Notes: a model not told the origin generated them from the sequence alone. Counted from the stretch's first letter, positions 7,103-31,829 are shown. The stretch is DNA of 43,681 bases from an uncultured Eubacteriales bacterium (GCA_905372515.1 CAJPPJ010000001.1:1-43681); one strand, 5' to 3'. Translations and numbers: made by a program.

Positions 7103-7687
7103 ATGAAAAAAATAGTATATCACGGAAGTCCAAGAGGAGATATTGAAGTATTGAAATCTCATAAAAGCACGCATCAAAAAGATTGTATATATGCAACTGA
7201 CAATAAAGCAGTAGCACTTCTTTATATGGGTAGAGGAAAAGGAGATTTAGATACTAGGCTTAGAAGTATAGATAAAAAACCTGAAGTAGTAGAAAGAAGA
7301 GCAGGAGTATTTGATAATTTATATAATAAAGAAGGTTATTTATATGAATTAGATGGAAGTACTTTTAATCATTATGATTATTTATGGTCTTTAGAAGTAA
7401 TATCTTTTGAAAAAGAAATTAAACCATTAAAAAAGATATATTATTCTAATATTTTAGCAGCTTTAGAAGAGGAAGAGAAAAAAGGAAATTTAACAATTTA
7501 TAGGTATCCAAATAGACCTAAATATATGCCTATAGATAATAGTGATTTAATAGAAAAATTCATTAAATTTGAAATACAAGGTTTAAAAGGTTCAATAGAT
7601 AGATTACTTGAAGTATATCCGGAATTTGAAGAAAAAGTAAATAATTATAAGGTGAAAAATGATTTTAAATGTAAGCGGAAGGACTGA
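7103..7687 (+). CDS. Hypothetical protein with a speculative H-Y-E ADP-ribosyltransferase-like motif pattern.
   Basis: VYHGSP (H7), CIYATDN (Y30) and YLYELDG (E82). SD GAGGA. The 3' end overlaps the next gene by 29 nt. Confidence 0.6.
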   Translation: MKKIVYHGSPRGDIEVLKSHKSTHQKDCIYATDNKAVALLYMGRGKGDLDTRLRSIDKKPEVVERRAGVFDNLYNKEGYLYELDGSTFNHYDYLWSLEVISFEKEIKPLKKIYYSNILAALEEEEKKGNLTIYRYPNRPKYMPIDNSDLIEKFIKFEIQGLKGSIDRLLEVYPEFEEKVNNYKVKNDFKCKRKD

Positions 7688-10864: not shown

Positions 10865-10950
10865 TTAATTTTTAAATTTAAGACAAGAAAATTTATATTG
10901 CTATTAATTACTAAAAATTTAAATATTAGTAGTAAACTTAATAAAAATAA

Positions 10951-10976
10951 GTAGTTATATAACTACCTATTTTTAT
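10951..10976 (+). terminator. Rho-independent terminator (AT-rich stem).
   Basis: Palindrome GTAGTTAT/ATAACTAC followed by ctattttta. Confidence 0.5.
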
Positions 10977-11170
10977 TAAGAATATGATACAATTATTTTA
11001 AGAATTAACTTTTAGAAATAAAGAAAATCAAGTTGATATGTTTTTGCACTGAAAATTTTTATTTTAAAATTTAATAGATAAATGTGAATAAGATTAATGA
11101 CCAACGAGAATAATTTTAAAAAACTAATAGTTAAAAATAATAAACATTATTTGTAAGGAGATAATTATAA

Positions 11171-12319
11171 ATGAGTTTAGAAGATAAAATAAATTATTTA
11201 GATTATAAATATCAATTTGTAAAAAATAATAAATACTGGGATTATAATAGATTATATAATATAAGTATAAATAATAAAGAATATAAAATATTAGAAAATG
11301 ATATTTTATTAAATGTTGCAAAAGATATCTCTAGAAAAACTGATGGGGATTTTGTTGATAGAAAATCAATGAGAGATTATGAAATACCAAATATTGATAT
11401 AGAAAGAATGAAAAAAATAGTTATAGATTTTTTTAATCAAGTTAATCCTGAATATTATAAAAAGCTAGAATTATTATTATCTAAGACAAAGTTTATAAAG
11501 TATGATGAAAACAAACCAAGTGATAATCAAAGATGTGTTCTTAATTCTGATGGAATCAAAATTTATTACCAAAATGATTTAAATACATTAGTGAATTTAG
11601 CTCATGAATTAAGTCATGGAATTTCTCGTTTAAATAATAATTTAGAAGAAAAGTATAATGATGAAGTTGAAGTACTTTCGGAAGTTGAATCTCTGATGAC
11701 AGAAGACATATTTCTAGAATATTTAAAGTATAAAAATCTTCAAATAAAAGAAAAAAATTTGGCTAATGAAGTAATAACATTAGATGAAGATATTATTAAC
11801 GATATAAAATATAGTAAATATAAGACATATATTTATTGTGCGTATAGAGCAATAGATGAATTAGAATTTAAAAATATCTTAAAGAGAAATAAAATAAATA
11901 ATATTGATAAAGATTTTATAGAAAGAATATCTAATTTTACGAATATATCAAATGATGATGTTATTTCAAGAATTGATAGATTTATAAATAGATATTATCC
12001 AAGTGATAATAATGTACACGATTATATAGGTATTTCCAATTATGATTTAAAAAATGGTCAACAATTGTCAAATGAATCTAGGTTTATTTATGCAGAGTGT
12101 TTAGTTGAAAAATTTAATAATATGAATCTAGATAAAAATCAAAAAGTAGAATTTTATAAAAATTATTTAAATAGTGCAAAAGATATGAGTTTTCAAAATG
12201 TTTTACAATTGTTTAATGTTAATCTAATGAATATAAGTAGTTTTTCTGAAGATTTTATTAGAAAATTTAATTCTTTATCCGATGATGTTAAGAAAAAGCC
12301 ATTGCCACCACAATTATAG
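11171..12319 (+). CDS. Short M3 (oligoendopeptidase F)-like zinc metallopeptidase.
   Basis: LAHELSHG (HExxH) followed by EVESLMTEDIFLE, a third-ligand Glu region like the M3 E.aS..E. 382 aa against about 600 for typical PepF. Strong SD AAGGAG. Confidence 0.55.
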   Translation: MSLEDKINYLDYKYQFVKNNKYWDYNRLYNISINNKEYKILENDILLNVAKDISRKTDGDFVDRKSMRDYEIPNIDIERMKKIVIDFFNQVNPEYYKKLELLLSKTKFIKYDENKPSDNQRCVLNSDGIKIYYQNDLNTLVNLAHELSHGISRLNNNLEEKYNDEVEVLSEVESLMTEDIFLEYLKYKNLQIKEKNLANEVITLDEDIINDIKYSKYKTYIYCAYRAIDELEFKNILKRNKINNIDKDFIERISNFTNISNDDVISRIDRFINRYYPSDNNVHDYIGISNYDLKNGQQLSNESRFIYAECLVEKFNNMNLDKNQKVEFYKNYLNSAKDMSFQNVLQLFNVNLMNISSFSEDFIRKFNSLSDDVKKKPLPPQL

Positions 12320-12393
12320 TTTTTTTAAAATATAAAATTGTTTTTTAAAACAAAAGGCTTATTTTTATGAATAATGTAAAAAGGAGGTAAAAC

Positions 12394-12786
12394 ATGGATT
12401 TTAATTATGAACAAGAAGAAAATAAATTAATATTAGTAAATGAGAATATATAGTGCTTTTCTTAATAAGAAAACTAAAATGAATGATGGAATAATTAAAA
12501 TTATTGATTTTGAAAGATTAATGTATGCACTAAGAGATTTTGAATTAGATATTTTATATAGAATGATTAGAAAACCTTGGAAATTTGCAAGTGAAGAAAC
12601 AGAACAATTTACTGATTCTGTCATTATGCAAATATAATGTCATATATAGAAAAATATTATCCAGAATTAATCCACATTGATAATTTATATCAAAGATTAG
12701 CTATATATGATATGGTTTACTTTATGAAATATTTAATAAAACATTTTGAAATAGAAGAATTAAAAAAGAAAAGTATTCTATCTTGA
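12394..12786 (+). pseudogene. Frameshifted remnant of a phosphotransferase (APH/choline-kinase-like) C-terminal region.
   Basis: A strong SD (AAGGAGG) plus ATG 12394 gives only 19 codons. The reading continues in the +1 frame (12440-12637, ..GIIKIIDFERLMYALRDFELDIL..) and then in a third frame (12637-12786, YYPELIHIDNLYQRLAIYDMVYF..). Confidence 0.45.
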
Positions 12787-13003
12787 CGCTATTGATGTTA
12801 TGCCGGACTATAAAAGCAATGGTTATGGAACAGGTTTAATATCATTTGCTTGTGATTTTGTTAAAACTATTGATTGTTATAAAATGTATTTAATAACTAA
12901 TAGAAGTAATGTATCTACTTGTAAATATTATGAAAAAGCAGGAGGAATAAATAAAGCAGATTATGAAATTATTTATGTGTATGATTTTAAGGAGAAAAAC
13001 TAA
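12764..13003 (+). pseudogene. N-terminally truncated GNAT acetyltransferase remnant; only the motif A/B half is left.
   Basis: The frame opens at 12764: ..YLDAIDVMPDYKSNGYGTGLISFACDFVK..YLITNRSNVSTCKYYEKAGG. That is the acetyl-CoA loop and C-terminal half of GNAT with no N-terminal half. TAA overlaps the next ATG (TAATG). Confidence 0.55.
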
Positions 13004-13896
13004 TGGATATAAAAAAGATAATAGAGGAAAAATGTAATATAAATATTGATAGTATAAAATTAATAGGCAAAGGATATGACAGTAAAGCATACATTGTAAA
13101 TAATGAATATGTTTTTAAAATTAAATTTAGTACTAATAAGAAAAAAGGGTATGAAAAGGAAAAAGTAATATATGATTTTTTAAATAAAAAATTAAATACA
13201 AGTATTAAAATACCAAATATAGAATATTCATTTATAAGTGAAGAAGTATCTATTTTAGGGTATAAAGAGATTAAAGGAACTTTTTTAACACCGGAAATTT
13301 ATTTTACTTTATCTAAAGAAAATCAAGAACTATTGAAACAAGATATTGCTATTTTTTTAAGACAAATGCACGATTTGGATTATAGTGAAATAAGTTCTTA
13401 TACAATAGATAACAAGAAAAATGTTTTAGAGGAATATCAATTGTTAAGGGATACTCTTTATGATAGTCTTACTGATGCTGAAAAGAAATATGTTGAAGAA
13501 TTTATGCAAAGATTACATATTACAACTATATTTGATGGTAAAAAGTGTTTATGTCATAATGATTTTAGTTGTAATCATTTATTGCTTAATGATGATAATA
13601 GATTATGTGGTGTAATTGATTTTGGGGATTCTGGAATTATAGATGAATATTGCGATTTTATATATTTGCTAGAAGATAGTGAGGAAGAAATAGGTAGAGT
13701 ATTCGGAGAAGATATATTAAGATTATATGGAAGCATTGATATAGAAAAAGCAAAAGAATATCAAGATGCTGTGGAACAATATTATCCTATTGAAACTATT
13801 GTTTATGGCATTAAAAATAATAGACCTGATTTTATTGAAAAGGGTAGAAAAGAAATATATATAAGAACTCATAAAAATGAAAAATTAAGGAAGTGA
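13003..13896 (+). CDS. Aminoglycoside 2''-O-phosphotransferase, APH(2'')-Ia-like.
   Basis: Kinase motifs [12 protein letters not shown] and IDFGDSG. Long stretches match my recollection of the APH(2'') domain of AAC(6')-Ie/APH(2'')-Ia ([88 protein letters not shown]). Confidence 0.8.
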
Positions 13897-13900
13897 TGCT

Positions 13901-14800: not shown

Positions 14801-15880
14801 ATGAAAAATATAAATATGTCTATCATTAAGTTTATTAGTAGAATAAGTGATTATTTATATGAAACATTACTTTTTATTCAAGATAAAATTAATGTATTTG
14901 ACTTAAAAAAAGTATTAAAATTAGTTATTAAAATATTACTTTTTGTATTAATTTTTTGGATTATAAAAGCTTTTATAGTTCCTTTAGCGTCTATATTTGC
15001 ACTCATTATAGATACTTTTAGTAATATTTTAAAAGGTACGTTTTCAAATGTGTTAACATTTGCACTTTACAATTTCTATTATCTATATTTTTATTTAAGC
15101 TTATATAAATTTATAAAACATTTAATAGATGAAAAAGATATTAACATTTTTAAATCTACAATGATTAATAAGCAATTAGTTAAAATAAATGAACTTATTT
15201 TAAAATTATTAAAAATTGTACTTTATATCTTTTTACTTCCATTATTTGCATTAGGAGTAGTAGGAGTATTATTCTTTATATATTTAATATTCTTAATATT
15301 TAAAGGAAGTTTTATTTTTAGTTTATATTTAATTGTTATAGCATTAATAGTTGCAACTTTATGTTTATTAAAATATATTCTAGGATTTATACATGATCAA
15401 AATAAGAAAAAATATAAATATATAGCTATATTTTCTTATATTAGTATTTTCTTATTTACATTACTTTTTATGTTTGAAACAAGAAATTATAAAGTAATAA
15501 ATGATATTAAAACACTTGAATTAACTAAACACAATATAACATATCAAATAGATAAAGGTATTGAAATATCTACTAGTGGATTTTATGAAATCAAGTATGA
15601 TGAAAAAGTTAAAAAGGGAAATTTGAGAATTAAATTTGAAAACTACGAAACAACTTCTTATACTTTAGATACTAAGACAGAAAATAATAAAACTAAATTA
15701 GAAATTAATTACTATATTAATAATAATGTAGAAAACTTTAAGAATATTGTAAAACTATTTAATGATTCTTTAATAAAGAAACAATTTTATGATTATTCAA
15801 GATTAAAGTATGGTAAATTAACTATTACTATTAATCCAAAAGATAAAAATTTATTAAAAGTTATAAAAAATGCTAAATAA
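14801..15880 (+). CDS. Multi-pass membrane protein of unknown function with a C-terminal soluble domain.
   Basis: 359 aa with about 6 hydrophobic segments, then a Lys/Asn-rich beta-like tail. Strong SD AAGGAG. Confidence 0.65.
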   Translation: MKNINMSIIKFISRISDYLYETLLFIQDKINVFDLKKVLKLVIKILLFVLIFWIIKAFIVPLASIFALIIDTFSNILKGTFSNVLTFALYNFYYLYFYLSLYKFIKHLIDEKDINIFKSTMINKQLVKINELILKLLKIVLYIFLLPLFALGVVGVLFFIYLIFLIFKGSFIFSLYLIVIALIVATLCLLKYILGFIHDQNKKKYKYIAIFSYISIFLFTLLFMFETRNYKVINDIKTLELTKHNITYQIDKGIEISTSGFYEIKYDEKVKKGNLRIKFENYETTSYTLDTKTENNKTKLEINYYINNNVENFKNIVKLFNDSLIKKQFYDYSRLKYGKLTITINPKDKNLLKVIKNAK

Positions 15881-16472
15881 TAGAGAATATGAAGAAAAAT
15901 ATAGTAATTTAAATTACATTTGTGGAGTAGATGAAGTAGGTAGAGGACCACTTGTAGGACCAGTAGTAGCATCTGCTGTAATACTTCCTAAAAATTATTT
16001 TATAGAAGGATTAACAGATTCTAAAAAGTTATCCAAAAAGAAAAGAGATTATTTCTATGAAGTTATCCAAAAAGATGCTTTAGCTATAGGTATTGGAATA
16101 GTTGATAATAAAAAAATAGATGAAATAAATATTTTAGAAGCATCTCGTTTGGCTATGAAAAAAGCTATAAATAATTTATCTATCAAACCTGATATAATTC
16201 TTACTGATGCTATGAGACTTGATATGGGAATACCAGAAGAGGATATAATTAAAGGTGATTTAAAAAGTATTACAATATCTGCAGCTAGTGTAATAGCTAA
16301 AGTTACAAGAGATAAAATGATGGAAGAACTTCATGAAAAGTATCCAATGTACAACTTTATTAAAAATAATGGTTATCCTACTAAAGAACATATAGAAGCA
16401 ATTAAAAAATATGGAATAATAAAAGAACATAGAAAATCATTTAGACCTATAAAAGACACTATAAATAATTAG
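15870..16472 (+). CDS. rnhB: Ribonuclease HII.
   Basis: GVDEVGRGPLVGPVVASAV, DSKKLS and ISAASVIAK motifs. 200 aa. Confidence 0.9.
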   Translation: MLNNREYEEKYSNLNYICGVDEVGRGPLVGPVVASAVILPKNYFIEGLTDSKKLSKKKRDYFYEVIQKDALAIGIGIVDNKKIDEINILEASRLAMKKAINNLSIKPDIILTDAMRLDMGIPEEDIIKGDLKSITISAASVIAKVTRDKMMEELHEKYPMYNFIKNNGYPTKEHIEAIKKYGIIKEHRKSFRPIKDTINN

Positions 16473-16485
16473 TGTCTTTTTTTAT
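16452..16485 (+). terminator. Rho-independent terminator overlapping the rnhB stop.
   Basis: Stem aaagacact / agtgtcttt followed by a T7 run. Confidence 0.7.
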
Positions 16486-16497: not shown

Positions 16498-16535
16498 TCA
16501 AATTGTATATTATTAATAATAGGAGGAGAATACTT

Positions 16536-17765
16536 ATGAATGAAAGATTAATGAATCTTGATGATTTAGATAAGTATGGTCAAAATCTTATAACTTATTC
16601 TGATTATGTAAATGATTCTATGAATAAAATAGCAGCAGGGTTTAATAATTTATATGCTGCAAAAATAATCCAAGGAAGAAGATCTAAAGTATTTATAGAT
16701 GTATATAATGAAATGGATGAGTCTAGAAAGAATGTTGTAGATAAACTATATGAAGTAAAAGAGTTTGTTGATACTGTAAGAACAGCTATGCAAAATCTTG
16801 ATGCAGATCAAGCCAAGAAACTTCAAACATCACTAGATGAAATGGGTATAAAAAAGGGACAAAATGGAAATAGTGGTGGTTCTTCCTCTGAAGGAAATAG
16901 TTCAGGACAAGGAGGAAGTGCTCCTTCAAGAACAACTTCAGAAGCAGATGAGCAAAGAATAAGAGAAGAATTAAGTAAAACATCAAGTGAAAATAATACA
17001 GGTCAAGGAACTGATGAAACTCAGTCTTCAGATCAAGATGATAATAAAACAACTACATTAGAAGAAACAGAAACATCAACTACAAAAAAATATAGTACTA
17101 GAGATAATATAAGTCCTTATGATAACCTTAATGAAGATTATATTCCACCAGAAAAGATGGATGCGGAATATGAAAAATATGCTAATACACGTTATACAGG
17201 TTCAAGAACTATGAGTAAAGAAGAATTTGAGATTAAACATTCTAATCTATCTCCAGAAGAAAAGAATTATCGAATGCAAAATCTAATAGATAAAGATATG
17301 CGTAATAGGGGTACAGCTAATGTTTCATATAACACTTCTTACGGACAATCATCAAATTATCATATGGAACAAACAGCAGAAAATTATATAAACAATATGT
17401 ATAAAGATAGAAATTATGATCCAGATGGACCACTATTTGGTAGGCAATTTTCTAAAGGTTATGACATACATTCTATAAAAGATCTTTATAAAAATTCAGA
17501 TGGACATGGTGGTATGTATACTCCATGGACTGAAAATAACGTCGGTTTGACAGTAAAAGAAACATTAAAAGTAGATGGAAAAGAATATACTTTAACAGTT
17601 GATACAGATAAGCTTCCAACAAATAGAGAATGGAATCAAGCTAAAGAAGATTTTATTAGACAAGTAGCGAAACCAGATTCAATTATTGAATCATCTAAAA
17701 CAACTTATAGTTTCTTTAATTTAGATTTAGAAAAAGCTAAACAAGCATATGAAAAAACTTTATAG
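16536..17765 (+). CDS. LXG-like (I-x-G) N-domain protein with a Gly/Ser/Thr linker and an unknown C-terminal cargo domain. Putative type VII secretion-type substrate.
   Basis: N-terminal 105 aa are paralogous to 18126 and 18806 (NKI..GF.NL...KIIQG at residues 45-47). ATG 16536 follows AGGAGG, so the TTG 16503 extension is rejected. Low-complexity stretch GNSGGSSSEGNSSGQGGS. Confidence 0.6.
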   Translation: MNERLMNLDDLDKYGQNLITYSDYVNDSMNKIAAGFNNLYAAKIIQGRRSKVFIDVYNEMDESRKNVVDKLYEVKEFVDTVRTAMQNLDADQAKKLQTSLDEMGIKKGQNGNSGGSSSEGNSSGQGGSAPSRTTSEADEQRIREELSKTSSENNTGQGTDETQSSDQDDNKTTTLEETETSTTKKYSTRDNISPYDNLNEDYIPPEKMDAEYEKYANTRYTGSRTMSKEEFEIKHSNLSPEEKNYRMQNLIDKDMRNRGTANVSYNTSYGQSSNYHMEQTAENYINNMYKDRNYDPDGPLFGRQFSKGYDIHSIKDLYKNSDGHGGMYTPWTENNVGLTVKETLKVDGKEYTLTVDTDKLPTNREWNQAKEDFIRQVAKPDSIIESSKTTYSFFNLDLEKAKQAYEKTL

Positions 17766-17789
17766 AAATACTAAAGGAGGTAAATAATT

Positions 17790-18116
17790 ATGGGTAATAC
17801 TGTTGGAATAAAATATCAAGAAGCAGAAGTAGAAATTGAAAAATTAGAAAAAGCTATTGAAGATTTATATACAAATGTTGAATTAATTGATAAAAATACA
17901 AATGAAATATCAAAAGATACATGGGTAGGAAAAGATGCTGATGCATATCAAGAAAAAATTCTTGGTTATTCAGATAAATTAAAAAAACAAACAGACTCTT
18001 TTAAAGAATTAGTAGAAAAATTAAAAGATGTAGTAGCAGAGTTTAAAGCTGAAGAAGAAAAAAGTGCTACTAAGATGTCTGGTGAATTTTCATATGGTAA
18101 TGAATATTATGTTTAG
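17790..18116 (+). CDS. WXG100 (ESAT-6-like) family protein.
   Basis: 108 aa predicted helical hairpin with central TW45VG47KDADAYQ. SD AAGGAGG. Confidence 0.7.
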   Translation: MGNTVGIKYQEAEVEIEKLEKAIEDLYTNVELIDKNTNEISKDTWVGKDADAYQEKILGYSDKLKKQTDSFKELVEKLKDVVAEFKAEEEKSATKMSGEFSYGNEYYV

Positions 18117-18125
18117 GAGAATACT

Positions 18126-18467
18126 ATGGATAAAAGAGAGATAAATGTTACTGAGTTAGGTAGTTTTGCTACACATTTAGATACTATTTCAAGTTATTTT
18201 GATGATTCTTTAAATAAAATAGGATCAGGTTTTAGAAATTTAAATGATGAAAAAATCATTGAAGGTAGAAGAACTAGAGTTTTTGAAATAGTTTACGGTT
18301 GTATGCAAAAGAAAAAATTAGAAATGAATGAAAAGATAAAAGAATTTGCAGAGTATATTAGACAAAATATTACTACTACTACAGAATTAGATGAAAGACA
18401 TGCTAAAGAATTAGAAGATGCTGTAGCAGCTATGGGTGATGTTTTTAAAAGGATAAATAAAAGATAA
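18126..18467 (+). CDS. Stand-alone LXG-like N-domain protein with no cargo.
   Basis: 113 aa, alignable end to end with the N-domains of 16536 and 18806 (KIIEG at residues 45-47; LDERHAKELED). Confidence 0.6.
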   Translation: MDKREINVTELGSFATHLDTISSYFDDSLNKIGSGFRNLNDEKIIEGRRTRVFEIVYGCMQKKKLEMNEKIKEFAEYIRQNITTTTELDERHAKELEDAVAAMGDVFKRINKR

Positions 18468-18481
18468 GGAGATGAATAATT

Positions 18482-18784
18482 ATGGCAAATGAAGTAATTG
18501 GTATAGATTATAGTCAAGCTGATGCTGAAATTAAAAGAATAGAAGAAGGTATAAGTAATCTACATACAAATTTTGGACTTATTAATAAAGCAACAAATGA
18601 TATTGTTAATAATGCATGGAAAGGTAAAGATGCAGAAGCATATAAAAATAGTATAGATTCATTTACTGAAGTATTAAAGAAACAAACAGAAGGACTTACT
18701 ACATTAGTTAATATACTTAAAAGACAAATAGATGAAGATATAGCTCATGAAGCAGAACAAGCTAAAAATATACAAAATAAATAA
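18482..18784 (+). CDS. WXG100 (ESAT-6-like) family protein.
   Basis: 100 aa with central AW46KG48KDAEAYK. Paralogous to 17790 (..KKQT..L...LK..). Confidence 0.7.
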   Translation: MANEVIGIDYSQADAEIKRIEEGISNLHTNFGLINKATNDIVNNAWKGKDAEAYKNSIDSFTEVLKKQTEGLTTLVNILKRQIDEDIAHEAEQAKNIQNK

Positions 18785-18805
18785 TATTAATATAAGGAGT
18801 TAATT

Positions 18806-19846
18806 ATGAATGAAAGAAAGATAAATGTTCTTGAAGTAGGTGAGTATAAGAAAAATTTAGAAGATGTAACTCATTATATCGATGATTGTATTAATAGAAT
18901 ATATGGTGGTATTAAGGCTTTAACTTCTCAAAATATTATCGAAGGTGAAATATCAAATACTTTAGAAAATGCTTATGAAGAATTAAGTAAAATTAGAACA
19001 GAAGTAAATGAAGAACTTGATTCTTTTACAGGTTGGATAGGAAAAAATATAGAAGATACTACTTTATTAGATGAAAGACATGCTAGAGAACTTGAAAATG
19101 AACTTAATAGTATGGAATTCTTTAAAGATGGTTATACTATATCTGGTGGTAATGCTTTCTTAACTGGTGACAATAATATGAAATTTAATTCACCAAATGG
19201 AACAACAAAAGAAGATACTACTCCTACTCAATCAACAGCTACTAAAGATGCTGCTGTTAAAACTGATAAAAATGAATCTAAAAACTTAGCAAATGATACA
19301 TATGAAACATCAAATGAATCTTCTTCAGCAGATGGAAATAAAAAAGTAAATGATAAAACAAAAGGTACTATAATGGGAACTGGTTTTGAAAGAGGAGCTG
19401 GTGGAGGAGACTATGAACTAGCAAGTAGTTTATCATGGTTAGATAAAACAAAAACATATACTCCATCAGAAGTAGTAGATAAAATTCAAAAAGATAAAGA
19501 ATATCATTCTGATAATAATGTTCCTTTAATGAAAAAATCTGATGGTACAGTAGCAAATAGTATAAAAGAATTTGCAGCAGATCAATATAAAGATCCATAT
19601 TATAAACCAGTATTAGATGCTATTAATAAACATGATGAAAAAAATTTGAGTTATGAATATATTATAAAAATGAATGTTGATGGTCAACAAAAAGATTGGA
19701 GATATAAGACAACTGAAAATTTAACTCCAAATCAAGTATATAGTGAATTTAATAATTATTTAAAAGCCAATACTACTAAAAATAGTAAAGTAGATTTTCC
19801 ATATAGTGGGGAACTTGGTATAAATATAGAAACTAAAGATAACTAA
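18806..19846 (+). CDS. LXG-like (I-x-G) N-domain protein with a Thr/Ser/Asn-rich linker and an unknown C-terminal cargo domain.
   Basis: The N-domain is paralogous to 16536 and 18126 (NIIEG at residues 45-47; LDERHARELEN). The C-terminal roughly 160 aa match no motif I recognise. Confidence 0.6.
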   Translation: MNERKINVLEVGEYKKNLEDVTHYIDDCINRIYGGIKALTSQNIIEGEISNTLENAYEELSKIRTEVNEELDSFTGWIGKNIEDTTLLDERHARELENELNSMEFFKDGYTISGGNAFLTGDNNMKFNSPNGTTKEDTTPTQSTATKDAAVKTDKNESKNLANDTYETSNESSSADGNKKVNDKTKGTIMGTGFERGAGGGDYELASSLSWLDKTKTYTPSEVVDKIQKDKEYHSDNNVPLMKKSDGTVANSIKEFAADQYKDPYYKPVLDAINKHDEKNLSYEYIIKMNVDGQQKDWRYKTTENLTPNQVYSEFNNYLKANTTKNSKVDFPYSGELGINIETKDN

Positions 19847-19848
19847 TT

Positions 19849-19873
19849 AAAAGAAGATTACTTCTTTTTTTTT
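19849..19873 (+). terminator. Rho-independent terminator.
   Basis: Stem aaaagaag / cttctttt with loop atta, then a T run. Confidence 0.6.
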
Positions 19874-22140: not shown

Positions 22141-23385
22141 ATGAATAACAATAATAACATATCAGCAGATTGGAATAATGTTGTAAGTAATAACATACCA
22201 GCAAATAGTATGCCAGTTACAACTCCAAATGTTCCAATAAATAATAACAATCCATATGTTAATAATATGAAAACAAAGAAAAAGTTTAAAGCTGTTAAAA
22301 AAGGTATGGATCCTATGAAAATAGCATTTATAGTAATAGGAGTTCTAATGGCTTTAACATGTGCCTTCTTACTATTATTTCCATTATTTAATAAGAAAAA
22401 AGGATATAAGGAAGGTATTATTCAAGCAAATAATTTTTATTCATTAAAGTATAATGCTAATGAATGGCAAAAGAATAATAATTATTTAGTTAATTCAAAA
22501 AATTCTAAATTTAAAGTAGATAATGTTACTCAAACAAAAGCAATAGAAGCATATAATTTTGCTAAAAAAGATAGTAGAACAGAATTACTTTATAGATTAA
22601 AATCTGAATATAAAAGAACAATTACAAATGTAGTTATGCCAGACTCAGATTTTAAATTATTAAGAAGTGGAGTATATTTAGCAACATTTGAATATTCAAC
22701 ATCTAATGGTTCTAAGACTATTAAAGGTAAAAAATACGTTGTAATAGCACCAGATTATAATTTTATGTTAACATTAACTTCAATAGTAGGTGATAAAGAA
22801 ACATATAAAGAAGTAGATAATGAGATGTTAAAAATATTAAAGACATTAAATATTTTAGTAAAGAGAGTAGAAAAAACTACTAATAAAAATCCTACTGAAA
22901 CAAATACAAATAAACCACAAACAGATAAAGTTGTAGAACAAAAGAATTATCAAATTATTGGAAGTGTTAATTATGGATATATGAAAGTACCTACTAATTG
23001 GAAAAGATTTGTAGATAAAAACAGTACTAATACCAACAATATGCAATATATATCACATGATTTAAGATACGTTGTTACTATGACAGCTCTTAGTAAAAAT
23101 GCTAATATAACACCTTTAGATTATTTAAAAAGTATAGAAGAAAAATATAAGAAATCTAATGTAGTTCAATATGCTAAAATGACTAGAGAAAGAGTGGGAA
23201 TAAAAAAGTATGAAACTTATAGATTAGATATGTATTTAGAAGATGATAAAGTATGGATGTCAGTATGGGTATTTAGAGCAGAAGATGATAGAATACATTT
23301 TGTATCTATAGAAGGAAGCAATAATAATAGTACAGTGTTTAATTATATTAATACTTATGTATTGAATAGAAATGATATTAAATAA
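22141..23385 (+). CDS. Single-pass membrane protein with an Asn-rich N-terminal tail and a large extracytoplasmic domain.
   Basis: N-terminus MNNNNNIS..NNNNPYVNN, TM segment IAFIVIGVLMALTCAFLLLFPLF, then about 330 aa that are probably external. SD GGGAG. Confidence 0.65.
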   Translation: MNNNNNISADWNNVVSNNIPANSMPVTTPNVPINNNNPYVNNMKTKKKFKAVKKGMDPMKIAFIVIGVLMALTCAFLLLFPLFNKKKGYKEGIIQANNFYSLKYNANEWQKNNNYLVNSKNSKFKVDNVTQTKAIEAYNFAKKDSRTELLYRLKSEYKRTITNVVMPDSDFKLLRSGVYLATFEYSTSNGSKTIKGKKYVVIAPDYNFMLTLTSIVGDKETYKEVDNEMLKILKTLNILVKRVEKTTNKNPTETNTNKPQTDKVVEQKNYQIIGSVNYGYMKVPTNWKRFVDKNSTNTNNMQYISHDLRYVVTMTALSKNANITPLDYLKSIEEKYKKSNVVQYAKMTRERVGIKKYETYRLDMYLEDDKVWMSVWVFRAEDDRIHFVSIEGSNNNSTVFNYINTYVLNRNDIK

Positions 23386-23406: not shown

Positions 23407-23439
23407 ATGGTATAATTTATTTATTATTTGGAGAATTTT

Positions 23440-25146
23440 ATGACAGAATTAGTAAATAGTGAATATATAGAACAAAATCTTTTATTTAAACATATGTCTT
23501 CTTATACAATATTTACTTCTATAGAAGATTTTAAAAATATTAAAGCAGGTAAAACTGTATCTATAAAGGGAGAAAATATACCTATAGAATATTTAAAAAG
23601 AATTTTAGAGGATGAAAAATACTATAATTATGTATTAGATTATTTTAGTGGTGAAATACCTAGATTTATTCTTGCTACTATAGTTAATGGTGATATTGGA
23701 AATAGACTTGAATATAAAAAAATTCAATTATTTAATGCTATTAAGAATATTATTAAACCATACGAAGAAGATAAAAATATAATGTCTAGGTTTGATAATT
23801 TAAAAGAATCTTTATTTTTAAATAAATTTATAATTAAGCATTATAATGACAACTTTAAAATAAATGTGGAAAATAAAGAATATGAAGTACCTATACTAGC
23901 ATTAATAGAACTTATTAACTTAAAAGAAGATAAATTTAGTGAAGTATGTGAAAATAATAAGATTAAAACAATTAATGAAATACCTAAAGACTATTTTTTA
24001 TATATTTTAAAAACTTTTATAGAAGATAATAAATTAATAGAAGATTATATAATCCCTAGTAATATTTTTAATAATTATACTATGTTAAAAGAAGGTCAAT
24101 TAATTGATATAGATGCTATTAATAAGTTTTTAAAAACTACAGATACTAAATATAAATATATTAAATTGAATAAGGATTTAGAACAAAAGATAATATCTAA
24201 TATGCCAGAAGATCTTAGTGATTTAGAAAAAGCAATGTATATTTATATTAAGATGTGTAAGACATTAAGTTACGATGAAGAATATTATGCAGTTAATCAA
24301 AAAGGAGATGCAGTGGAAAAGCACCAAGATTTAAAATATGTTTCAGAAATAACGTTAGATAATCCCAAAGCTGTTTGTTTTGAATTTAATGTAATTTATA
24401 CTAAATTTTTACATGATTTAGGAATAAATTTTCAAAGTAATTATAAAAATATGATTGGTGAAGTTTATGGAGATGGACATGTAGAATTAGACTTTAGAGT
24501 AGGAAAATATTTAGTACATGCTGACTCTGTTACTACTATTTTAGGTGGAGATATTGTTAGATCAAAATTAAATCAACCAATTATTGGCTTAACTTGTGAA
24601 AACTTAAATTTAAAAACAAAAGAAGAATTTAATAATTCTTTAAACAAAGTATATACTCTAATTAACGAAGAAGATAAAAATAATAAAAAACCTGCAGATA
24701 CTATAGAAAATTTATTAGAAGAATATAAAAATCTTACAGAAAATGTACAAAAATTAAAGATAAAAGATAAATTTAATATATTAATGGAAAAAATAGCATC
24801 TACTGAACTTAAAGGAATAGATGCATATTACTATATCTTGAAGATGAAAAAAATATTTTTTACACCAGATGAAGAAGTAGATAATTTATCATTTAATCTT
24901 ATAAGAAATAATTTACCTATGGATGAAGATAAAACTGCTAGTGTAATAGGAATATTTACTGTTAATGATTATAGTTTTAATGAATATGAAATGCTTAATG
25001 ATTATTATTTAGTAAATGAAGCAATGAATGTTTCTAAAATATCTAAAGATGAAATAGCAGAAAAATTTGATAGTGGAGAATACGATTATATTAAGAAGAC
25101 TGATTCTGGAATTCCTGGAGTTTTAACATATAGGAGAAAAAAATGA
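23440..25146 (+). CDS. Large cytosolic protein with a transglutaminase-like Cys-His-Asp core (tentative).
   Basis: PKAVCFEFNVIYTKFLHDLGI ... GDGHVELDF ... VHADSV gives C/H/D spacing like transglutaminase-fold cysteine peptidases. ATG 23440 lies 6 nt after GGAG and is preferred to TTG 23428. Confidence 0.5.
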   Translation: MTELVNSEYIEQNLLFKHMSSYTIFTSIEDFKNIKAGKTVSIKGENIPIEYLKRILEDEKYYNYVLDYFSGEIPRFILATIVNGDIGNRLEYKKIQLFNAIKNIIKPYEEDKNIMSRFDNLKESLFLNKFIIKHYNDNFKINVENKEYEVPILALIELINLKEDKFSEVCENNKIKTINEIPKDYFLYILKTFIEDNKLIEDYIIPSNIFNNYTMLKEGQLIDIDAINKFLKTTDTKYKYIKLNKDLEQKIISNMPEDLSDLEKAMYIYIKMCKTLSYDEEYYAVNQKGDAVEKHQDLKYVSEITLDNPKAVCFEFNVIYTKFLHDLGINFQSNYKNMIGEVYGDGHVELDFRVGKYLVHADSVTTILGGDIVRSKLNQPIIGLTCENLNLKTKEEFNNSLNKVYTLINEEDKNNKKPADTIENLLEEYKNLTENVQKLKIKDKFNILMEKIASTELKGIDAYYYILKMKKIFFTPDEEVDNLSFNLIRNNLPMDEDKTASVIGIFTVNDYSFNEYEMLNDYYLVNEAMNVSKISKDEIAEKFDSGEYDYIKKTDSGIPGVLTYRRKK

Positions 25147-25424: not shown

Positions 25425-25499
25425 TGGTGTCCCCAGCAAGAATCGAACTTGCATCTAATCCTTAGGAGGGATTTGTTCTATCCATTAAACTATGAAGAC
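25425..25499 (-). tRNA. tRNA-Arg (anticodon CCU), with the CCA end encoded.
   Basis: The reverse complement folds by hand into a cloverleaf: acceptor GTCTTCA/TGGGGAC, D stem GTTT/GAAC, anticodon stem AATCC/GGATT with loop CTCCTAA, T arm GCAAG-TTCGATT-CTTGC, then A-CCA. 75 nt. Confidence 0.85.
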
Positions 25500-26831: not shown

Positions 26832-27869
26832 ATGCTAAGAAGATGTAATACTTGTGGAAATTATTTTGAATCAAATACAGGTATATGTTCTATATGTGGT
26901 GCTAATAACTTAGCTCCTGGAGAAAGACTTGTTCCTCCAAAGAGACCTGTAAAAAAATTTACACCTAAGAAGAAAAATATATGGCCTTTTGTAATACTGA
27001 TGTTTTTAATCGTAGTTGTTGCAGCAGGTATTATTTTATACAATATTAATAATCCAAAATATGCTAATGATAATATAGTTAAGTTAAGTGGAGATGTTAT
27101 ATCTAAACCTACTAATATATTACCTAAAACAAAAGGAACAGTAGAAAGATCTAAAAATGGAAGAAATACTAATGAAGTTACAATTACATATAAGAATGCT
27201 GATCCAGTAGATATTAATAGATATGGAGAATATTTAAAAGAAAGAGGTTTTATTCCTTTTAGTTTACAAAAGGGAGTAGGATATGTAAAAACTAGTTCTG
27301 TAGATGTAAATAAAGTTATAGTTATATCTTTAGGATGTGGTAATGAAAGTAGTTGTTTTGCTAATTTTAAAAAGACAATTGGTAAGATAGACCATTATGT
27401 TACAGGAAGCACATTTACAAGAGTAGGAAATTCAATGGTAGGATATATTACTTTGACAGATAGATTTACACATCTTGATAATTCTAATAATCCGCTTGTA
27501 TATAAAGAAAAAGAAAATAGAGCTATAATTGCACTTGCTGTAATTAGAAATGCTGAAACTAAGAATTTTAGTACTTATCAAAATAAAATAGTAGCTGACT
27601 TAAATAATCAATTAAGAAAAAATCAAATTAAAGATTTAGCTACTAAGGGAATAAGCTTAGGTGATCATGAAGGATTTATGGTTAGTTATCATAAACTACC
27701 TAGTAAAGAATTAAATATGGAATACTATATTTATATAGCTGAAAAACATGAAGTTAGAAAGATTGTTATTAAAACAGCAGATGATTTATCTAAGTATAGA
27801 GAATTAATTTCAAGTTATTATACTGAATATAATAATAACAAGAATCAAACTATTCAAATAAATGGGTAA
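26832..27869 (+). CDS. Zinc-ribbon / single-TM / extracytoplasmic-domain protein.
   Basis: CNTCGNYF..GICSICG zinc ribbon, TM segment IWPFVILMFLIVVVAAGIILY, then about 270 aa that are probably external. Confidence 0.65.
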   Translation: MLRRCNTCGNYFESNTGICSICGANNLAPGERLVPPKRPVKKFTPKKKNIWPFVILMFLIVVVAAGIILYNINNPKYANDNIVKLSGDVISKPTNILPKTKGTVERSKNGRNTNEVTITYKNADPVDINRYGEYLKERGFIPFSLQKGVGYVKTSSVDVNKVIVISLGCGNESSCFANFKKTIGKIDHYVTGSTFTRVGNSMVGYITLTDRFTHLDNSNNPLVYKEKENRAIIALAVIRNAETKNFSTYQNKIVADLNNQLRKNQIKDLATKGISLGDHEGFMVSYHKLPSKELNMEYYIYIAEKHEVRKIVIKTADDLSKYRELISSYYTEYNNNKNQTIQING

Positions 27870-29514: not shown

Positions 29515-30567
29515 ATGAAAAATAATAAAGGATTTGCAGTTTCAACTCTTTTATATGGAATGCTTGCTATATTAATTATAATAATGGCATTTTTGGTTTC
29601 TAGTCTTAGAACAAAAAGAAATATTTCTAAAAGTGTAACTGACAATATTTTACTTAGTTTAAATAATTGTGCTGAAAAATTAGCACAATATAGACTTTGT
29701 TTATCAGAAATAGTAAAAGATAGAAATTGTTCTGTAGAAGAAAGTCAATATAGGTTATGTTTAAATATTGAGTCTTTTGATAATTCTGAAGGAATAAGTA
29801 TTCAAAGACTAAGAACAGAACTTGAAAAAGCAGGTAAGATAGTAAAAATAAATAATCGTTATATGTTAATGAAACCTTTATATGTTTTTAGAGGAGAAAA
29901 TGTAAATAATAATCATGTTATATATGAAAATAAAAGAGGTAGAATAATTTATTTTACTAATAATAATATAATGAAAGTATTATTTGATGATGGAGGTCAT
30001 AATAAATATACTGATGTAGTACTTAATAATAATTTATCAAATGTATCTGATGTTAACTTTTGGACTTCTTCATTTATATTTAACTATTTAAATACTGATT
30101 ATAAATTAACTTTTAATAATATAAATAGATTTCATGATAGTACTACTATAGGAGTAGGTAGTTTATATAATAAGAATTACTCTACATTCTTTACTATAGA
30201 TGAACAAGCATCTGAGGCTAGTTTATATTCCTTAATTTATGGTTATTATGGAAAGAAAACTAATAAAAATTCTCAAAGTTCAGATTCTTTATTCTCGCTT
30301 CCTTCAGTAGCTGATTTATTTTTAACAAGTAGATGTGATTTAAATAATTATATATCTAATGCTTGTGTAAATAGTAGTTGGATTAATAAGTTAGAGAGAT
30401 CTTGGACAATAAATAAAGTTTATAATGAATATAGTATTTTTACTAATAAAATGGATACTGCAGTAAGTAATACTAATTTAAGAATATATCCAGTAGTACA
30501 CTTTAGATCTATTACAAGAATAATAGGTGGAACTGGTAGTGAATCTGACCCTTATGTTTTAGGATAA
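29515..30567 (+). CDS. Secreted or surface protein with a prepilin-like N-terminus that lacks Glu+5.
   Basis: MKNNKGFAVSTLLYGMLAILIIIMAFLVSS (KG|F-type leader plus hydrophobic helix). C-terminus ends GGTGSESDPYVLG. 350 aa. Confidence 0.55.
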   Translation: MKNNKGFAVSTLLYGMLAILIIIMAFLVSSLRTKRNISKSVTDNILLSLNNCAEKLAQYRLCLSEIVKDRNCSVEESQYRLCLNIESFDNSEGISIQRLRTELEKAGKIVKINNRYMLMKPLYVFRGENVNNNHVIYENKRGRIIYFTNNNIMKVLFDDGGHNKYTDVVLNNNLSNVSDVNFWTSSFIFNYLNTDYKLTFNNINRFHDSTTIGVGSLYNKNYSTFFTIDEQASEASLYSLIYGYYGKKTNKNSQSSDSLFSLPSVADLFLTSRCDLNNYISNACVNSSWINKLERSWTINKVYNEYSIFTNKMDTAVSNTNLRIYPVVHFRSITRIIGGTGSESDPYVLG

Positions 30568-30596
30568 ATAATGATATAATTATCTAGGAGATGTTT

Positions 30597-31829
30597 ATGG
30601 AAAAATACGAGTTATATAAATTATGTTATGAAAGAGCAGTAGAAGATGCTACAATTGATTTCTTTATTAAAAATCCCGACAAAAAATTTGCTTATAAAAG
30701 TGAATTTTTAACATTTAAAGAAATTTCTAAAAGTAAATTAAAAGAAAAATTACCAAAAGATTTCGATGAAAAATTTTTAGATTTAGCATTGAAAGATGCT
30801 TTTGATAATCCTTTAAATGATGAAATTACTATAGATGAAGAGGATAAAGTAAAAGAAGAAGCTTTAAAGAAAGCTATAAATGAAACAAATTTATTGAGCT
30901 TTTTAAATGATAAATATTTATCAACTCAAAATAGTTTTTTAAATAGATTAGAAGATACTTTACATCTTTTAATAAAAAAAGAAAAATTGGATGAAAAAGA
31001 TTTTTCTAAGTATATTGAAGATCATTTTTATTATAGTTTTTCAAAAATTACTGAATTAAAATCTCGTAATTTAAAAACAGAAGTAGAAGAAACTAAAATG
31101 TCTCAAGATACAGAAGAAGAAAAAGCTTTGTATAAGGCATTAAATCAAATGTTTGCTAAGAAAAAAATGCCAGTTTTACCTAAAATAGAAGTACCACTTA
31201 AAACAGAAGAAGAAATCAGAGAAGATATTAAAGAAGATCTTGAAGATTTAGAAGATTTATCTAGGTTAGAAAAACTTATAGCAGATAGATTTTATGCTTA
31301 TGTTTTAATAAAATATGGTAAGACTAAAACAGATTTATTAGATGATATTAATGCCAAAATTAATCATAGTAATTTGTATAGAGAAGAATACAATAAAGAA
31401 ATAGATAAAGATATGCTTATTAGTGATAATCCTTTATATCAAAAAGATTATATATATGATGAAAGAGGCATGATAAAAGAGAAATTACCAATAATACCTA
31501 ATTTTAAAAAACTTCCAAGAGATTATTATATTTCATCTATATATTCAGAAGATTTCTTTAATACTCACGAAAGAGAAAGAGCTTTAGTAGAACAAATAGA
31601 AGCTATAAAAGAGGAAGAAAAGAAAAAAGCAATAGAAGCAGAAAAATTAAAAAATAAACTTCATACTTATAAATTAATTTTAAAACATAGATTAGGTTTT
31701 TCAAATGAACAAGTTAGTGATATGGATGATAAGACAGTTTTACTTATAGTAGAAAAAGCTAGAGAAAATGGAGTTTTTGATAGATTAAGTAATAAAGAGG
31801 AAGATGGTCCTAAGATTAGAAGAAGTTAA
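30597..31829 (+). CDS. Highly charged (Glu/Lys-rich) hypothetical protein.
   Basis: 410-aa ORF. ATG 30597 lies 6 nt after AGGAG and is preferred to ATG 30591. No recognisable motifs. Confidence 0.6.
   Translation: MEKYELYKLCYERAVEDATIDFFIKNPDKKFAYKSEFLTFKEISKSKLKEKLPKDFDEKFLDLALKDAFDNPLNDEITIDEEDKVKEEALKKAINETNLLSFLNDKYLSTQNSFLNRLEDTLHLLIKKEKLDEKDFSKYIEDHFYYSFSKITELKSRNLKTEVEETKMSQDTEEEKALYKALNQMFAKKKMPVLPKIEVPLKTEEEIREDIKEDLEDLEDLSRLEKLIADRFYAYVLIKYGKTKTDLLDDINAKINHSNLYREEYNKEIDKDMLISDNPLYQKDYIYDERGMIKEKLPIIPNFKKLPRDYYISSIYSEDFFNTHERERALVEQIEAIKEEEKKKAIEAEKLKNKLHTYKLILKHRLGFSNEQVSDMDDKTVLLIVEKARENGVFDRLSNKEEDGPKIRRS

Follow-up and report, generated by a model that had tools for sequence, protein, structure and literature searches.

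The subject of this analysis is a block of five back-to-back genes in a 43,681-nucleotide stretch of DNA (the window) from an uncultured Eubacteriales bacterium (GCA_905372515.1 CAJPPJ010000001.1:1-43681). The genes alternate between two families, here called P and W, in the order P1, W1, P2, W2, P3. They are most likely substrate and partner genes of the WXG100 type for a type VII secretion system (T7SS), in an uncultured, very AT-rich bacterium of the Clostridia type. All five open reading frames (ORFs) lie on the plus strand at exactly the coordinates claimed in the original prediction, which had been made from the sequence alone (Table 1). The gaps between them are 24, 9, 14 and 21 nt. A Shine-Dalgarno site of the GGAG type stands before every gene, in line with the strong ribosome-binding sites claimed earlier. 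For P1, a mechanical ORF list uses a TTG at 16503 instead of the ATG at 16536. The ATG is the likelier start, because it stands behind GGAGGAG (16522-16528) and because the orthologues start with MNERF or MNQRF.

The block lies between rnhB and an HD/ackA unit, as had been described, and the order rnhB, P-W-P-W-P, HD, ackA is kept in all assemblies examined, which come from independent metagenomes, and in two GTDB species representatives. A terminator had been placed directly at 19849. A hairpin followed by a T run does lie there (8-bp A/U-rich stem, -5.8 kcal/mol, z = -2.1), but it is weak and was not called by the consensus terminator scan. The statement that no immunity-like ORF accompanies the long P genes also holds, as W1 starts 24 nt after P1 and none follows P3. 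The five proteins lack a signal peptide and any hydrophobic segment (Kyte-Doolittle means over 19 residues stay at or below 0.31), and there is no Sec route for P1, P2, P3, W1 or W2.

Table 1. Genes, protein regions and boundaries of the P/W block in the window.
Feature	Position	Strand	Length	Description
Terminator-like hairpin 3' of rnhB	16451-16480	+		11-bp stem followed by a T run, from the consensus scan; upstream boundary of the P/W block
P1	16536-17765	+	409 aa	Hairpin, disordered linker and conserved C-domain
P1, residues 1-105				WXG100-like hairpin; I45-Q-G47 turn at 16668-16676
P1, residues 106-200				Disordered linker, S/T/E/G/N-rich
P1, residues 201-409				Conserved globular C-domain
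W1	17790-18116	+	108 aa	Predicted EsxA-type WXG100 protein; W45-V-G47 at 17922-17930
P2	18126-18467	+	113 aa	Stand-alone P-type hairpin; I45-E-G47 turn at 18258-18266
W2	18482-18784	+	100 aa	Predicted EsxA-type WXG100 protein; W46-K-G48 at 18617-18625
P3	18806-19846	+	346 aa	Hairpin, disordered linker and variable C-domain
P3, residues 1-105				Hairpin, model helices 8-41 and 48-102; I45-E-G47 at 18938-18946
P3, residues 112-207				Disordered
P3, residues 208-346				Alpha/beta C-domain, differs between strains
A/U-rich hairpin and T run	19849-19873	+		Probable terminator, downstream boundary; weak

The division into two families was borne out by BLASTP matches well beyond chance. W1 and W2 are 41-43% identical (E 1.2e-21), and the W and the G of the W-x-G motif are invariant among 15 members of the W family. 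The family had been taken for WXG100 on account of this central motif, which was confirmed in both proteins, while the WXG100 matches in the profile search lay below the gathering score (GA). Against Pfam WXG100 (PF06013), W1 reached 22.5 bits and W2 21.8 bits (E ~1e-4; GA 27.3), and against TIGR03930 the two scored 22-24 bits (E 1e-4 and 2e-5), where the cutoff is 44.85. A broad profile of the W family matched S. aureus EsxA (4.2e-6) and S. agalactiae SAG1039 (6.8e-6) over their full length, followed by mycobacterial ESAT-6-like proteins. The hidden Markov model (HMM) of the family also matched W104, a protein encoded at the essC locus described below, at 7e-20. Both W104 (28.9 bits) and W101 of the same locus (30.0 bits) are above the Pfam WXG100 gathering score. 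On their size, motif and homology, W1 and W2 are classed as divergent EsxA-type WXG100 proteins. W1 ends in an aromatic tail of about 9 aa (EFSYGNEYYV, window 18084-18113). Such a tail is also present in the W1 orthologues, for instance as YDYASYDV or YSYNNEWES, and is not present in those of W2.

The N-termini of P1, P2 and P3 can be aligned over about 105 residues at 28-40% identity, with BLASTP E-values of 1.5e-18 for P1-P2, 1.5e-23 for P2-P3 and 8e-11 for P1-P3. All three carry I45-[QE]-G47 at the position of the W-x-G motif, as had been noticed from the sequence. In a broad P profile, for which the family alignment was enlarged by remote members, only Met1 and G47 never vary and D89 hardly does; the turn is I/L/A-x-G and not W-x-G. 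A word-indexed search gave a family size of 30 proteins, and an exhaustive search of 1.84 billion cluster representatives with the P HMM gave 32 at E <=1e-3. No Pfam family was matched by P1, P2 or P3, no Pfam model covers the P family, and the match of TIGR03930 to P1 is weak (E 0.0095, residues 9-93). Pfam WXG100 was matched by 6 of 21 members of the family, with a best E of 1.9e-10.

When the broad P profile was compared with the PDB, the best single match was H. pylori HP0062 (1.8e-7). It was followed by B. anthracis EsxB (2.6e-6 to 1.4e-5), S. agalactiae SAG1039 (2.6e-4), the LXG domain 8gmh_B (6e-4) and S. aureus EsxA (5e-3). The alignments with the WXG100-fold structures run from end to end and place the 'IIeG' stretch on the W-x-G turn. 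An AlphaFold2 (AF2) model of P3 has two helices joined at I44-I-E-G47, with a predicted local distance difference test score (pLDDT) of ~83. The best fold match of this hairpin in Foldseek was B. anthracis EsxB (TM score 0.85, root mean square deviation 2.6-2.9 A, probability 1.0), and other matches were CFP10/ESAT-6, T. curvata EsxA:EsxB and HP0062. The earlier view of P as a helical-hairpin domain of the targeting type is upheld by the model and by the EsxB match. When P and W were aligned with each other by hhalign, the broad alignments brought 95 columns into register (E 3e-4, probability 40%), and the narrow ones were uninformative (probability 6%). The P N-domain is accordingly a WXG100-sized, WXG100-like helical hairpin and not a strict WXG100 protein. 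The more specific proposal, that P is a half-length LXG targeting domain, was rejected: none of P1, P2 and P3 matched PF04740 at E <=10, the domain is ~105 aa long, and full-length WXG100 structures were matched better (1.8e-7, 3e-6) than LXG (6e-4). Directly after the hairpin of P3, at residues 101-132 (window 19105-19200), a conserved motif, NSMEFFKDGYTISGGNAFLTGDNNMKFNSP, was found in all P3 orthologues, including the truncated ones, and an echo of it (NY[NK]xxGN) occurs in the remote members P0082, P0084 and P0086. This segment could be a partner-binding or export arm.

It had been stated that no EssC, EsaA or EssB occurs in the 43.7 kb, and this holds for the window, in which no protein reaches 1000 aa and nothing matches FtsK/SpoIIIE, YukC, EsaA or YukD. 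No apparatus gene was found in the 10 kb downstream of it either, so that ~54 kb around the locus were examined in all. However, both the P/W block and essC are held by one scaffold, ena:ERZ28634275:VALL22-1_SAMEA10740463_METAG-scaffold_4 (530,783 bp). The five-gene block (locus L021) lies there at ~289.5-292.8 kb, with 98.9% nucleotide identity to the window over 14.2 kb and with five proteins that are 96-100% identical to those of the window. The essC gene (locus L019) lies at ~38.8-43.4 kb, ~246 kb from the block. EssC is a protein of 1541 aa with Pfam FHA and FtsK_SpoIIIE domains, and it scores 915.5 bits against TIGR03928, the T7_EssCb_Firm equivalog, for which the cutoff is 778.4. An EssC that passes TIGR03928 on the shared scaffold indicates that the genome encodes a motor of the T7SSb type. 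A cluster look-up gave 864,513 bp as the longest contig of both P0031, an orthologue of W1, and P0107, and contigs of that length also occur in the cluster of the 439-aa protein from an essC locus. The possibility that the genome has no T7SS was ruled out by essC on the scaffold of the locus, and the compact export system without a T7SS that had been suggested is unsupported, given a canonical T7SSb-type essC in the same species. With essC at a distance of 246 kb, little can be concluded from a 44-kb window in which no apparatus is seen.

At the essC locus, the genes run in the order suf operon, essC, an 84-aa ORF, a 440-aa P-like protein, a pilin-like gene, smc, an LRR protein, a 439-aa ORF, W104, P109, W101, P422 and P105. 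The P HMM matches P109, P105, P422 and the 440-aa protein at E-values from 9e-32 to 3e-4. A P-W alternation with other C-terminal parts is therefore found again beside essC, a recurrence that the original prediction had proposed to look for. The same is seen at L014, the locus of the remote P member P0082, where the end of a 1541-aa FHA and FtsK_SpoIIIE protein is followed by an alternating W/P array. By its size and its place immediately behind essC, the 84-aa ORF resembles EsaB/YukD, but no profile or PDB match supports this identity. At L019:5040-19930 (~38.8-53.7 kb of the scaffold), no recognisable esxA was seen upstream of essC, and the suf operon lies on one side; this locus may be a reduced or rearranged T7SSb. 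The long P-type proteins (L019:10001-11323, L019:18221-19489, L017:1-1155, L017:1526-2629 and P0097) have a WXG100-like hairpin followed by a low-complexity region of 200-300 aa rich in G/S/T/N/P. They then carry a glycine-zipper-like transmembrane (TM) segment (e.g. AGLGALGLGAVGLGGAALM) and end in a short acidic tail with a final Trp (...SSNW, ...FIDW, ...DVDW, ...NVSW).

Two of the P copies had been described as running through low-complexity linkers into C-terminal domains that could not be placed, and this description stands, as no family or solved fold was matched. The AF2 models have a pLDDT of 72 for P1 and 69 for P3. Searches of Pfam, NCBIfam and PADLOC gave no toxin family for the C-domains of P1 and P3. 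Foldseek of the P1 C-domain model against the PDB gave nothing significant (best E 0.12). For the P1 and P3 models together, all matches had an E of 0.1 or worse, and the little finger of Y-family polymerases recurred among them without significance. A search for homologues of the P1 C-domain returned P1 orthologues only, with no other delivery domain. Among all orthologues found, this domain is 63-99% identical (~72% to the sister species), and its ratio of nonsynonymous to synonymous substitution rates (dN/dS) is 0.25-0.27. The value for P2 is 0.11-0.30, and that for the P1 linker is ~1.0-1.2, as in near-neutral evolution. With purifying selection on the structured domains and values near 1 in the linkers, the block is made up of real genes. 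A phage, plasmid or defence origin was also considered and rejected, since there was no significant match to PHROGs or PADLOC and no blastn match in phage or plasmid collections.

In contrast to the conserved P1 cargo domain, the tail of P3 is hypervariable. Its C-terminus is an alpha/beta domain (pLDDT 73-96) in the window, in L012 and in P0075, and it consists of low-complexity KATSSNAT and GKYDNS repeats in the species of L002-L007. Many strains have P3 versions of 129-177 aa that end within the linker. In alignments with the C-domain of P0075, that of the window P3 reached z = 9.8 and that of P1 z = 6.2; aligned with each other, the P1 and P3 C-domains gave an insignificant score (z = 2.5). 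This transitive link by way of P0075 makes it probable that the cargo domains of P1 and P3 are distant paralogues with a common terminal module of beta-hairpin, helix and strand (...VDG[KQ]...P...). This does not agree with the idea of unrelated polymorphic-toxin cargo modules, and neither does the conservation of the P1 domain across species.

Variation was also found in the array itself. When L012:7068-8400 was compared with window 17790-19120, W1, P2, W2 and the N-terminal part of P3 were almost identical between otherwise diverged species (synonymous divergence, dS, of 0.02-0.10), whereas rnhB, P1 and the P3 C-domain have a dS of 0.5-0.8. Judged from these values, the L012 locus is a recombination mosaic. 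Comparison of L014:9900-10773 with L019 (junction near 19530) revealed an indel of exactly one P148-W94 pair, present in L014 and absent in L019. This indel takes out a P-then-W unit, unlike the W-then-P adjacency that recurs as a unit in other lineages. Each genome has at least 7 or 8 P/W genes at two loci. Such variation in copy number, together with mosaicism, is typical of secretion substrates.

Taken together, these results suggest, with a probability of roughly 0.7, that the P-W-P-W-P block is a satellite (orphan) operon of T7SSb substrates and their partners, with a known mode of action and a new family. In the T7SS subtypes, nearly all candidate substrates adjoin one or two small WXG100-related genes (PMC11217815), and small partners related to WXG100 are the typical neighbours of T7 substrates (PMC11217815, PMC10765036). 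By analogy with EsxA-EsxB, EsxB/EsxW, Lap-LXG and EsxBCD-EsaD, the hairpin of a P protein and that of the W protein paired with it would pack as an antiparallel helical bundle. This bundle would be a composite targeting signal read by the EssC ATPase; a composite signal has been proposed for the LXG/Lap and EsxB/C/D-EsaD complexes of the T7SSb (PMC10765036, PMC9600955). The observations in favour of EssC-dependent export are the lack of a Sec signal or transmembrane segment in the five proteins and the association in the genome. P1 and P3 would bring their C-terminal globular cargo through the T7SS on linkers that are long, disordered and rich in S/T/G/N. P2, without cargo, would leave the cell only as a small heterodimer partner or adaptor. 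The lack of an immunity gene, the conserved P1 cargo and the repeats in some P3 tails favour a non-toxin cargo. We consider, with low confidence, that the cargo probably acts outside the cell as something other than an antibacterial toxin.

Several points weigh against a satellite operon of T7SSb substrates. The locus is tied to essC by homology to the essC-adjacent array and not by adjacency, and the 10 kb on either side of essC contain no recognisable EsaA, EssA or EssB. P1, P2 and P3 of the window are individually below the Pfam gathering score, as are W1 and W2 when each is taken alone, and their assignment relies on family profiles and transitive links. The cargo models had no PDB match better than E 0.1-0.2. 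Finally, no consistent pattern of YxxxD/E, FxxxD or HxxxD/E motifs was seen by eye in the tails of the W and P proteins.

The same genes can be read as an LXG/Lap-type locus of polymorphic antibacterial toxins, in which P1 and P3 would be the toxins and the W proteins their helpers, with immunity unrecognised or encoded elsewhere. A helical N-domain followed by a linker and a variable C-terminus, beside small WXG100-like genes, is what would be expected of such a locus (PMC10765036), and the original prediction had pointed to this likeness. The layout of substrates with small helical partners was retained; a toxin-immunity module was not, as neither a toxin family nor an immunity ORF was found. 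The sharp differences of the P3 C-terminus among lineages, its truncation in many strains and the recombination mosaic in L012 would also fit a toxin, and the glycine-zipper-like TM ends of the long P proteins at the essC locus recall the membrane-acting toxins TspA and TelE. We nevertheless regard a toxin locus as unlikely. The space after P1 is taken by W1 and that after P3 by the terminator, which leaves no ORF capable of immunity. The C-domains belong to no toxin family of the three collections searched and have no PDB fold, and the P1 C-domain is conserved across species with a dN/dS of ~0.25 and sits on P1 orthologues alone, never on another delivery domain. The P3 tail of the L002 type consists of low-complexity repeats and is not enzyme-like.

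The W and P proteins might instead be paralogues of a core EsxA/EsxB-like heterodimer with a structural or regulatory role in activating EssC, the extensions of P1 and P3 being accessory and maybe cell-associated. Non-identical EsxA pairs are core parts in T7SSa, T7SSe and T7SSg (PMC11217815). No esxA precedes essC here, WXG100 genes occur near essC only as W/P pairs, and W-P adjacency is a recurring unit in other lineages. However, the number of P/W genes at the two loci and the strain-variable copy number (L014 compared with L019) are substrate-like, and two P proteins have large C-domains, conserved or variable, so that a core role seems very unlikely. That the proteins are T7SS-independent cytosolic helical bundles, with a likeness to Esx in fold only, is extremely improbable. 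The best PDB match of the P profile does come from HP0062 of H. pylori, a bacterium without a T7SS, and the ~54 kb examined around the locus have no apparatus gene. Yet essC is present in the same genome with homologous P/W genes directly downstream of it, and the W family is tied both to WXG100 members above the gathering score and to EsxA structures of Firmicutes. A bolder version of the preferred reading, that of T7SSb substrates and partners, would have P as an unnamed 'IXG' branch of WXG100, a minimal N-terminal targeting domain with dedicated WxG partners at 1:1, used by non-toxin effectors that need no immunity genes in a stripped-down T7SSb. We regard this as possible but doubtful. It would possibly amount to EsxAB/PE-PPE-like pairing inside a Firmicute, bridging the substrate logics of T7SSa and T7SSb.

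Comparison with known systems shows where the P and W families differ from them. With WXG100/ESAT-6 (PF06013) they share the ~100-aa helix-turn-helix with an x-G turn, full-length profile matches and a host that has essC. Unlike that family, P has I for W in the turn and is missed by Pfam, W1 and W2 score below the cutoff, and two of the three P copies are the N-domains of proteins of 346-409 aa. The EsxB-EsxW system of B. anthracis is comparable in that the secretion of EsxW needs EsxB, and thus a small WXG100 adaptor is needed there to secrete another protein of the WXG100 family (PMC4570534). The EssC of B. anthracis (T7SSc type) is without FHA domains (PMC11217815), whereas the EssC of this genome has FHA. 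The cargo has no detectable sequence kinship with that of B. anthracis, and here the long proteins have I-x-G and the genes alternate in tandem. EsxW, EsxV and EsxL were reportedly described by Garufi et al. in 2008 as having C-terminal extensions after the WXG100 domain.

LXG proteins with Lap1/Lap2, or EsaD with EsxB/C/D, resemble the P/W block in their helical N-domain with a hydrophobic-x-G turn, their linker and C-terminal cargo, and their adjacent hairpin partners. The differences are that the targeting domain of P is ~105 aa long, compared with ~200 aa in LXG, and that the partners here are true WxG proteins and not DUF3130, DUF3958 or DUF5344. The stoichiometry here looks 1:1 and not 1:2-3, and neither an immunity gene nor a recognisable toxin domain is present. 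Mycobacterial EsxA-EsxB and PE-PPE (T7SSa) also form tandem pairs of non-identical hairpins, duplicated away from the apparatus and sometimes with one partner extended at the C-terminus. They belong to another phylum with another apparatus (here EssC has FHA and is assigned to T7SSb by TIGR03928), and no YxxxD/E motif was identified here.

Further observations concern the rest of the window and its host, apparently a human-associated bacterium with a small genome. The GC content is ~23%, and the GC skew is strongly positive all along. A tRNA-Arg(CCT) at 25425-25499 is the sole minus-strand feature found, the rest of the 43.7 kb being all on the plus strand. At 7103-7687, a 194-aa ORF flanked by a MazG-like gene pair and DUF1848 has a match below threshold to ART-PolyVal, the ADP-ribosyltransferase of polyvalent proteins (E 4.9e-5, 24.5 bits; GA 31.2). 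A variable island lies just upstream of rbgA. It holds a 382-aa ORF and an APH-family kinase in the window (10900-13900), a DUF6414 gene in L020/L021:4900-6100, and 382-aa and 282-aa ORFs with a Peptidase_C15 gene in L002:2700-5550. Seven conserved ORFs of 345-572 aa (11171-12319, 14801-15880, 22141-23385, 23428-25146, 26832-27869, 29515-30567 and 30591-31829) have no Pfam match at E <=1e-3, and strong TM segments are present in at least two, those of 359 aa and 414 aa. These seven Pfam-less conserved ORFs suggest that the host lineage is highly divergent.

The P family adds to the repertoire of type VII substrates a rare, lineage-specific hairpin family without a Pfam model (32 among 1.84 billion representatives). 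It shows that cargo can be fused to a domain of WXG100 length, and not of the 200 aa of LXG, in an array with true WXG partners. The long P proteins are candidate secreted effectors without a known fold, in an uncultured Clostridia lineage of very low GC content that is seen in many metagenomes. If their cargo is not antibacterial, these proteins could inform the roles of the T7SSb beyond interbacterial killing.

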